Shown one piece after another: positions 20,941 to 21,882 of a DNA stretch of 64,000 bases. How positions within the stretch are numbered: position 1 is the stretch's first letter; the number at the start of each line of letters is the position of its first letter. Source of the stretch: Escherichia coli (GTDB taxonomy: Bacteria > Pseudomonadota > Gammaproteobacteria > Enterobacterales > Enterobacteriaceae). The DNA is taken from the NCBI RefSeq assembly GCF_046105845.1, contig NZ_CP151004.1, one strand, 5' to 3'. A model generated the notes under the pieces. The model ran no database searches. It was not told where the DNA came from and was given only the letters and a program-made list of their open reading frames with translations. A program made the translations under genes and the position numbers.

Positions 20941-20972
20941 AATGCCACGGATTGCGTGGCATTCTTATTTTC
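20941..20972 (+). terminator. Stem-loop terminator-like element after yfeY, abutting the yfeX ribosome-binding site
   Basis: 9-bp perfect stem aatgccacg/cgtggcatt followed by cttattttc. Confidence 0.5.
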
Positions 20973-20982
20973 AGGAGGAACA

Positions 20983-21882
20983 ATGTCTCAGGTTCAGAGT
21001 GGCATTTTGCCAGAACATTGCCGCGCGGCGATTTGGATCGAAGCTAACGTGAAAGGGGAAGTTGACGCCCTGCGTGCGGCCAGTAAAACATTTGCCGATA
21101 AACTGGCAACTTTTGAAGCGAAATTCCCGGATGCGCATCTTGGTGCGGTGGTTGCCTTTGGTAACAACACCTGGCGCGCTCTGAGCGGCGGCGTTGGGGC
21201 CGAAGAGCTGAAAGATTTTCCGGGCTACGGTAAAGGCCTTGCGCCGACGACCCAGTTCGATGTGTTGATCCACATTCTTTCTCTGCGTCACGACGTAAAC
21301 TTCTCTGTCGCCCAGGCGGCGATGGAAGCGTTTGGTGATTGCATTGAAGTGAAAGAAGAGATCCACGGCTTCCGTTGGGTTGAAGAGCGTGACCTGAGCG
21401 GCTTTGTTGACGGTACAGAAAACCCGGCGGGTGAAGAGACGCGTCGCGAAGTGGCGGTTATCAAAGACGGCGTGGATGCCGGCGGCAGCTATGTGTTTGT
21501 GCAGCGTTGGGAGCACAACCTGAAGCAGCTCAACCGGATGAGCGTTCACGATCAGGAGATGATGATCGGGCGCACCAAAGAGGCCAACGAAGAGATTGAC
21601 GGCGACGAACGTCCGGAAACCTCTCACCTGACCCGCGTTGATCTGAAAGAAGATGGCAAAGGGCTGAAGATTGTTCGTCAGAGCCTGCCGTACGGCACCG
21701 CCAGTGGCACTCACGGTCTGTACTTCTGCGCCTACTGCGCGCGTCTGCATAACATTGAGCAGCAACTGCTGAGCATGTTTGGCGATACCGATGGCAAACG
21801 TGATGCGATGTTGCGTTTTACCAAACCGGTCACTGGCGGCTATTACTTCGCGCCGTCGCTGGACAAGTTAATGGCGTTGTAA
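20983..21882 (+). CDS. yfeX: Dye-decolorizing (DyP-type) haem peroxidase YfeX
   Basis: 299 aa [23 protein letters not shown]..; aggagg SD 5 nt upstream. Confidence 0.93.

Follow-up and report, generated by a model that had tools for sequence, protein, structure and literature searches.

A conserved, leaky Rho-independent terminator nested with a separate yfeX promoter very probably occupies the 95-bp spacer between yfeY and yfeX in the Escherichia coli sequence analysed here (64,000 nucleotides of contig NZ_CP151004.1, hereafter the window, whose numbering is used throughout). A hairpin and its U-rich tail would end the ypeA-yfeZ-yfeY mRNA and, presumably, a sigmaE-driven yfeY mRNA. Termination would be constitutive and partly efficient, some polymerases continuing into yfeX, and transcripts of yfeX alone would start at 20938 from a TAAAAT hexamer with an FNR-like box at about -42.5. 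A single 23-nt hairpin would then close the upstream mRNA at its 3' end and open the yfeX-only mRNA as its 5'-terminal stem-loop. Such an arrangement would leave yfeX largely uncoupled from the envelope-stress and housekeeping transcription of yfeY, its level being set mainly by its own anaerobiosis-associated promoter. Published mapping together with comparative analysis establishes the terminator, the read-through, the start site, the occupancy by FNR and sigma70, and the conservation of these elements. The arrangement is an ordinary compact one and not a new regulatory switch; all of its elements are already in public datasets, and no paper discusses them together.

A canonical terminator downstream of yfeY

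The hairpin (20941–20963, + strand) was recognized by folding, by a terminator scan, and by its conservation. Its arms, AATGCCACG (20941–20949) and CGTGGCATT (20955–20963), form nine perfect pairs, five of them G-C, around the loop GATTG (20950–20954). The stem is followed by the tail CTTATTTTC (20964–20972), the Shine-Dalgarno (SD) sequence AGGAGG (20973–20978, + strand; nearly invariant in the alignment of 80 loci described below), a 4-nt spacer AACA, and the yfeX ATG at 20983. A first-pass annotation made from the sequence had described a perfect 9-bp hairpin with a T-rich tail adjoining the yfeX AGGAGG, and both its coordinates and its description were accurate. The predicted fold has a free energy of -14.1 kcal/mol, compared with -5.0 ± 2.1 for shuffled sequences (z = -4.4; none of 200 shuffles was as stable), and the terminator scan ranked the hairpin as the best site of the region. 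Only five loci in the window, counting both strands, carry a perfect hairpin of 9 bp or more and a T-rich tail, whereas dinucleotide shuffles gave 0.26 ± 0.69. Stem and loop (nine pairs, 5 nt) fall within the range of intrinsic terminators, which have a G-C-rich stem of ~5–14 bp and a loop of 3–8 nt, and a U-rich tract lies directly 3' of the stem. Transcript release at such sites canonically occurs ~7 nt after the G-C-rich portion of the stem.

Published coordinates were transferred from K-12 MG1655 as window position = 20983 - (K-12 coordinate - 2550545), a conversion that was checked against the K-12 sequence. Term-seq mapped RNA 3' ends in two growth conditions to K-12 2550560 and 2550561 on the minus strand, that is, to 20968 (30,332 reads) and 20967 (41,034 reads) within the tail (Adams 2021; PMC7815308). 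These ends lie 4–5 nt past the stem and 7 nt past its G-C-rich part. The same study classed the 3' end as "orphan; upstream ORF -15/-16; yfeX" and as predicted intrinsic, with an intrinsic-terminator score of 10.86 against a threshold of 3; its Rho score after bicyclomycin was 0.76, flagged "No", so the end is not Rho-dependent (PMC7815308). No yfeX entry was found in the TERMITe 2025 supplements. The hairpin is thus a genuine canonical Rho-independent terminator, conserved in evolution, and the earlier proposal that it terminates transcription on the yfeY side is borne out by these ends and by the ypeA-yfeZ-yfeY isoform described below.

Two other roles for the structure were considered and rejected. 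It is not a repeat or repetitive extragenic palindromic element, being present in a single copy per genome, nor is it a bidirectional terminator, given that the minus-strand hairpin runs into GUUGGGCG, which is not U-rich.

Transcript isoforms and the yfeX promoter

Long-read mapping by SMRT-Cappable-seq reported four operon variants at the locus (Yan 2018; PMC6131387, Supplementary Data 2). Two share a start at 2552167 and comprise either b2434-b2433-b2432 (ypeA-yfeZ-yfeY), without yfeX, or b2434-b2433-b2432-b2431, reading through into yfeX; the other two contain b2431 (yfeX) alone and start at 2550590 (window 20938) or at 2550555 (window 20973, the A of AGGAGG) (PMC6131387). Supplementary Data 1 of that study holds no entry for these start sites. 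The shared upstream start maps to about 19361, just downstream of a sigma70-type ypeA promoter found by promoter scan (TTGGCT-17-CATAAT, 19327–19355, + strand), a distant upstream origin for transcripts reaching the hairpin. Because isoforms with and without yfeX both exist, the terminator is leaky: transcripts stop after yfeY and also read through into yfeX. The first-pass annotation had anticipated that read-through from yfeY would carry the hairpin as a structured leader, as the four-gene isoform does. It had also regarded its view as incompatible with a yfeX start downstream of the hairpin and no read-through; a start there is reported in K-12 (2550555, window 20973), and read-through transcripts nevertheless exist.

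Three transcript classes therefore emerge from these isoforms, namely ypeA-yfeZ-yfeY mRNA ending at the hairpin, read-through mRNA including yfeX, and yfeX-only mRNA starting at the foot of the hairpin. The RegulonDB operon yfeYX, as cited in the SMRT-Cappable-seq table, is too simple by comparison, and the main value of the present analysis is one of annotation.

The start at 20938 (K-12 2550590, + strand; operon "b2431" in Supplementary Data 2) is the first A of AACAATGCC and lies 3 nt before the stem, a placement for which the conversion was checked on K-12. That an independent yfeX promoter would have to lie inside or upstream of the terminator had been argued beforehand from the sequence, and this start agrees. 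The -10 hexamer TAAAAT (20925–20930, + strand) ends 8 nt before the start, and TAnAAT occurs at the aligned position in 75 of 80 Enterobacteriaceae loci; no -35 hexamer was found at 16–18 bp from TAAAAT. The yfeX-labelled 3' end was also retained in the 5' untranslated region (5' UTR) table of Adams 2021, whose filter requires a start site of Thomason 2015 21–200 nt upstream (PMC7815308), consistent with a yfeX start site 30 nt upstream of the 3' end.

Several side observations concern this promoter. Between the -10 hexamer and the start, the discriminator (20931–20937) is G+C-rich and conserved (AGCGCCC, or AGCCGCC in other genera). G+C-rich discriminators are associated with stringent down-regulation by guanosine tetraphosphate (ppGpp), and this one would fit the reported silence of yfeX in stationary phase. 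The only candidate -10 for the second K-12 start (2550555) is a weak one, TATTAT in K-12 and TCTTAT in the window, and this start is reported here and not relied on. The difference is a single-nucleotide polymorphism (SNP) at 20964 (C in the window, A in K-12) within the sole plausible -10 for that start, and the C allele is common to other Escherichia species and other genera. The second start may be specific to the K-12-like haplotype, present as an exact match in 3,180 of 5,426 genomes. Other candidate signals were discarded. By inspection, a sigma54 promoter in the right arm (TGGCAT-N5-TTTTC) lacks the -12 GC, and a sigmaE promoter built on TCTGA at 20894 has no GGAAC at the right spacing. 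A yfeX extended in frame to a GTG at 20956 would begin within the stem with no SD, the annotation starting at the ATG at 20983.

Conservation across Enterobacteriaceae

A YfeX scan of one genome per species yielded 80 Enterobacteriaceae loci, including Escherichia, Citrobacter, Salmonella, Enterobacter, Klebsiella, Raoultella, Kluyvera, Kosakonia, Buttiauxella, and other genera. Upstream of yfeX, yfeY is found in all 80, across a spacer of about 92–109 nt. When the loci were aligned over the -10-to-ATG interval, 86% of the helix cells of the hairpin were paired, compared with 24%–57% when the partners were slid by 1–3 columns, and RNAalifold gave back the same core helix. Compensatory change affected four pairs on both sides, in 18 cells, which none of 500 shuffles equalled; the compensated stems include CCACA/TGTGG (Klebsiella and Raoultella), CCGCG/CGCGG (two lineages), and CGCCAC/GTGGCG (Buttiauxella). 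G-U wobbles arise on the + strand only (G41-U57 in eight distinct sequences, G47-U52 in four), a pattern that fits a + strand RNA helix better than it does a DNA palindrome. The arms (GCCAC/GTGGC) are at least 90% invariant from genus to genus, and the loop and flanks drift. Spacing is similarly constrained: in 69 of 80 loci the core stem lies 12–14 nt from the -10, and in 69 of 80 it lies 10–12 nt from the SD. In 74 of 80, six to eight of the 10 nt that follow the core stem are T.

Within E. coli, 1.7 kb around the hairpin was matched in 5,423 of 5,426 complete genomes at 95%–99% identity, and the window is itself E. coli chromosome. The stem is invariant in the species, the only common SNPs lying in the flanks at 20936 and 20964. 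These are also the only two differences between the spacers of the window and K-12 (C/T and C/A, respectively), both off the stem. The K-12 65-mer is found exactly in 3,180 genomes and that of the window in 343, and in the intermediates sampled the differences are confined to the two flanking SNPs.

In E. coli Br_167_kylling (NZ_CP182378; locus L085, 3550–4255), an insertion sequence of the IS200/IS605 family carrying tnpA lies within the U-tract, at approximately window position 20969, and separates the hairpin from the yfeX SD. Its left junction reads ...GGCATTCTTATT/GTGCACAG, and the right-end hairpin of the element, CCTCCGGCTATGCCGGAGG, now precedes ...TTTATTTTCAGGAGG. Matches are broken off at the U-tract point in a few dozen genomes. 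In Enterobacter sp. JUb54 (locus L058, ~2375–2470), and in this one genome, an insertion of ~60 nt with the inverted repeats TACTTCGCGTTG...CAACGTGAAGTA parts the conserved -10 from the hairpin.

Oxygen, FNR, and sigma70 at the yfeX promoter

Directly after the yfeY stop codon, nearly all genera hold a TTG(A/C)(T/G) motif at a fixed distance of 35–36 nt to the -10, and the intervening sequence drifts. In Escherichia this becomes the FNR-like box TTGCG-TCTG-AACAA (20889–20902 in the window, + strand), a 7/10 match to the FNR consensus TTGAT-N4-ATCAA. The box is centred at about -42.5 from the yfeX start, near the -41.5 of a class II site, with its left half at a fixed distance to the -10. Published peaks given on U00096.2 were placed by assuming an offset to U00096.3 of ~+1,977 bp.

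With that offset, an FNR chromatin immunoprecipitation sequencing (ChIP-seq) peak labelled yfeX at ~2548637 falls at about window position 20914 (Myers 2013; PMC3688515, Tables S2, S5, and S9). It was called by all three callers (MOSAiCS, NCIS, and CisGenome), with a PatSer ln(p) of -7.48, and a sigma70 ChIP-seq peak at 2548601 (~20950 in the window) rose ~4-fold in occupancy, from 133 aerobically to 524 anaerobically (PMC3688515). Expression of yfeX was most induced in anaerobic log phase and barely expressed in stationary phase (Dailey 2011), and it is up-regulated anaerobically in Yersinia intermedia. We infer that the FNR peak corresponds to the box at 20889–20902. The link of yfeX to FNR is a supported lead and falls short of a demonstrated mechanism, and yfeX may have an unrecognized anaerobically activated promoter.

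Coupling of yfeX to yfeY

The sequence GGCACTT-N16-TCCAA in the yfeZ-yfeY spacer (20253–20280, + strand), assigned by comparison with the sigmaE consensus, is almost invariant from Escherichia to Buttiauxella and is a candidate sigmaE promoter of yfeY. On sigmaE overexpression, yfeY rose 3.3-fold and yfeX did not change significantly (Bury-Mone 2009), whereas Kabir 2005 and Rhodius 2006 listed yfeX as induced by sigmaE; yfeY was not found in the main text of Rhodius 2006. A leaky terminator gives such a pattern, with yfeY up, yfeX unchanged, and other studies in disagreement. The coupling of yfeX to yfeY thus looks partial and passive. The three transcript classes explain why the sigmaE studies disagree on yfeX, and also how yfeX can be an anaerobically expressed gene and yfeY an envelope-stress gene.

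Weighing the nested arrangement and its alternatives

Several points weigh against the combination of a leaky terminator and a nested promoter. Term-seq and long-read ends alone cannot tell termination from trimming of the 3' end as far as a stable hairpin. In 800-nt windows without bicyclomycin, DirectRNA-seq gave a coverage of 121 upstream and 88 downstream of the 3' end (PMC7815308), a downstream value that mixes read-through with transcripts from the yfeX promoter and gives no quantitative read-through fraction. The U-tract, counted from the G-C core of the stem (UUCUUAUUUU), is interrupted. The start site comes from one dataset, and the supplements of the 2016 Cappable-seq study hold no matching coordinate in either genome version. 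The FNR box is just a 7/10 match, with a right half that Klebsiella, Raoultella, and Kosakonia do not conserve, and the yfeX FNR peak is among those without an FNR-dependent change in expression (Table S9, PMC3688515). Finally, two proposed consequences are conjectural: the 5' hairpin would protect yfeX mRNA from 5'-end-dependent decay, and some locally started transcripts would stop at +30/31, yielding a hairpin RNA of ~31 nt.

A stronger version holds that the promoter-terminator nesting was itself selected as a one-way insulator, which we regard as unlikely. Polymerases from the sigmaE and ypeA promoters would be halted at the terminator, whereas those that start 3 nt before it would more often escape it, for example with sigma70 still bound or with a transcript too short for termination. 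The transcripts that escape would bear a protective 5' hairpin, and the rest would become the ~31-nt RNA. The conserved spacing between -10, stem, and SD across Enterobacteriaceae fits such selection without proving it. If termination were promoter-specific in this way, the locus would illustrate neatly, on a small scale, how a compact genome insulates a gene, without opening any major question.

A regulated attenuator or antiterminator, in which a signal switches the hairpin so that yfeX follows yfeY in some conditions only, is very improbable. Terminated and read-through isoforms do both exist, and the three sigmaE studies that differ on yfeX induction could mean condition-dependent read-through. 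However, minimum free energy (MFE) and centroid folds of the 3' UTR contain no competing pairing, only a weak unrelated upstream helix, and the sequence from the stop codon to the -10 is poorly conserved save for the TTG motif and an A-tract. An Rfam scan of 19000–23000 at E ≤ 1 returned two chance eukaryotic matches and no cis-regulatory family. The only open reading frame (ORF) touching the hairpin, from the ATG at 20942, was rejected as a leader ORF; it starts in the stem, has no SD, and shifts frame between genera, where the loop is 4 or 5 nt. Moreover, a leader from the yfeX start consists of 3 nt plus the hairpin, with no space for a sensor. The earlier suggestion of regulated coupling between the lipoprotein and the peroxidase is therefore not supported, there being no conserved antiterminator pairing, no Rfam match, and no conserved leader ORF, and the 3' end is Rho-independent.

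Equally improbable is that the hairpin acts only as a stability or processing barrier, the mapped 3' ends arising from exonuclease trimming. Term-seq does not distinguish termination from processing, as Adams 2021 (PMC7815308) themselves say, and coverage downstream is 73% of that upstream (88 versus 121). Nonetheless, the T-tract conserved after the stem in the 80 genomes (six to eight T in 74) is needed for termination, whereas an exonuclease block would not require it. At 10.86 versus 3, the intrinsic-terminator score is well above threshold, the 3' end sits at the canonical release distance, 7 nt past the G-C-rich stem, and the separate yfeX promoter accounts for the high coverage downstream.

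There is even less room for the view that the inverted repeat is mainly a DNA operator, ATGCCACG-N4/5-CGTGGCAT at +4 to +26, on which a dimeric factor represses the yfeX promoter. A palindrome immediately 3' of a start site is in the classic repressor position, and the GCCAC/GTGGC arms are at least 90% invariant while loop and flanks drift. Yet the G-U wobble variants (G41-U57 and G47-U52) retain RNA pairing and break DNA symmetry, a T-tract consistently follows the stem, and the RNA 3' end maps exactly there. We know of no factor with a GCCAC/GTGGC operator motif, although the palindrome may have a secondary operator role. Translational control, with the hairpin or U-tract occluding the yfeX ribosome-binding site on read-through transcripts, is the least probable of all, for although the tail ends 1 nt before the SD and MFE folds in many genera pair CUUUUUUU with AGGAGGAG, the SD in the window is unpaired save for a 4-bp helix of ~-1.7 kcal/mol, the pairs between U-tract and SD are weak A-U and G-U ones closing loops of 3–4 nt and are absent in Escherichia, and the base of the stem, 20 nt before the ATG, is at the margin of the ribosome footprint.

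Comparison with known systems

The nested terminator and promoter resemble partial intercistronic intrinsic terminators such as T1 of rpsU-dnaG and the rplL-rpoB attenuator, which likewise combine a G-C-rich stem, a short loop, and a U-rich tail, are Rho-independent and leaky, lie between co-directional genes, and precede a downstream gene with an internal promoter. Unlike in those cases, the yfeX promoter starts 3 nt before the stem, making the terminator the first structure of the downstream mRNA, and the U-tract runs directly into the SD. The hp1 hairpin of the ompA 5' UTR is said to be the paradigm of a 5'-terminal stem-loop that stabilizes mRNA, reportedly since the work of Emory, Bouvet, and Belasco in 1992. 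As with hp1, where a stable hairpin has at most ~4 unpaired nt at the 5' end, the yfeX hairpin lies within ~4 nt of the 5' end of its mRNA (start 20938, stem 20941; 3 nt by the published start), and the spacing from -10 to stem is conserved; it departs from hp1 in having a U-tract behind it and in working as a terminator.

A terminator hairpin just upstream of a coding sequence is also found in classical attenuators and in riboswitches (trp, pyrBI, and the cis-regulatory leaders of Rfam), but that of yfeX comes without a leader peptide, antiterminator helix, aptamer, or Rfam match. The Adams 2021 catalogue (PMC7815308) of premature-termination 3' ends in 5' UTRs includes the exact yfeX end; the upstream yfeY mRNA, rather than a yfeX leader, may account for most of its signal.

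Genomic context and other hairpins in the window

All genes treated here lie on the + strand of the window. The yfeY coding sequence (20312–20887) encodes a 191-aa lipoprotein, as seen in the ORF list and the RefSeq annotation, and that of yfeX (20983–21882) a 299-aa DyP-type porphyrinogen peroxidase, supported by the ORF list, the annotation, and the 80 orthologous loci at 81%–100% identity. RefSeq annotation of the 5,423 E. coli genomes and K-12 names yfeZ, yfeY as an RpoE-regulated lipoprotein, and yfeX as porphyrinogen peroxidase. In K-12 MG1655, yfeX (2549646–2550545) and yfeY (2550641–2551216) are both on the minus strand.

The other four perfect hairpins with a T-rich tail in the window lie at 2289–2314 (+), 33866–33891 (-), 50478–50503 (both strands), and 56315–56338 (+). 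That at 50478–50503 qualifies on both strands and is therefore a candidate bidirectional terminator.

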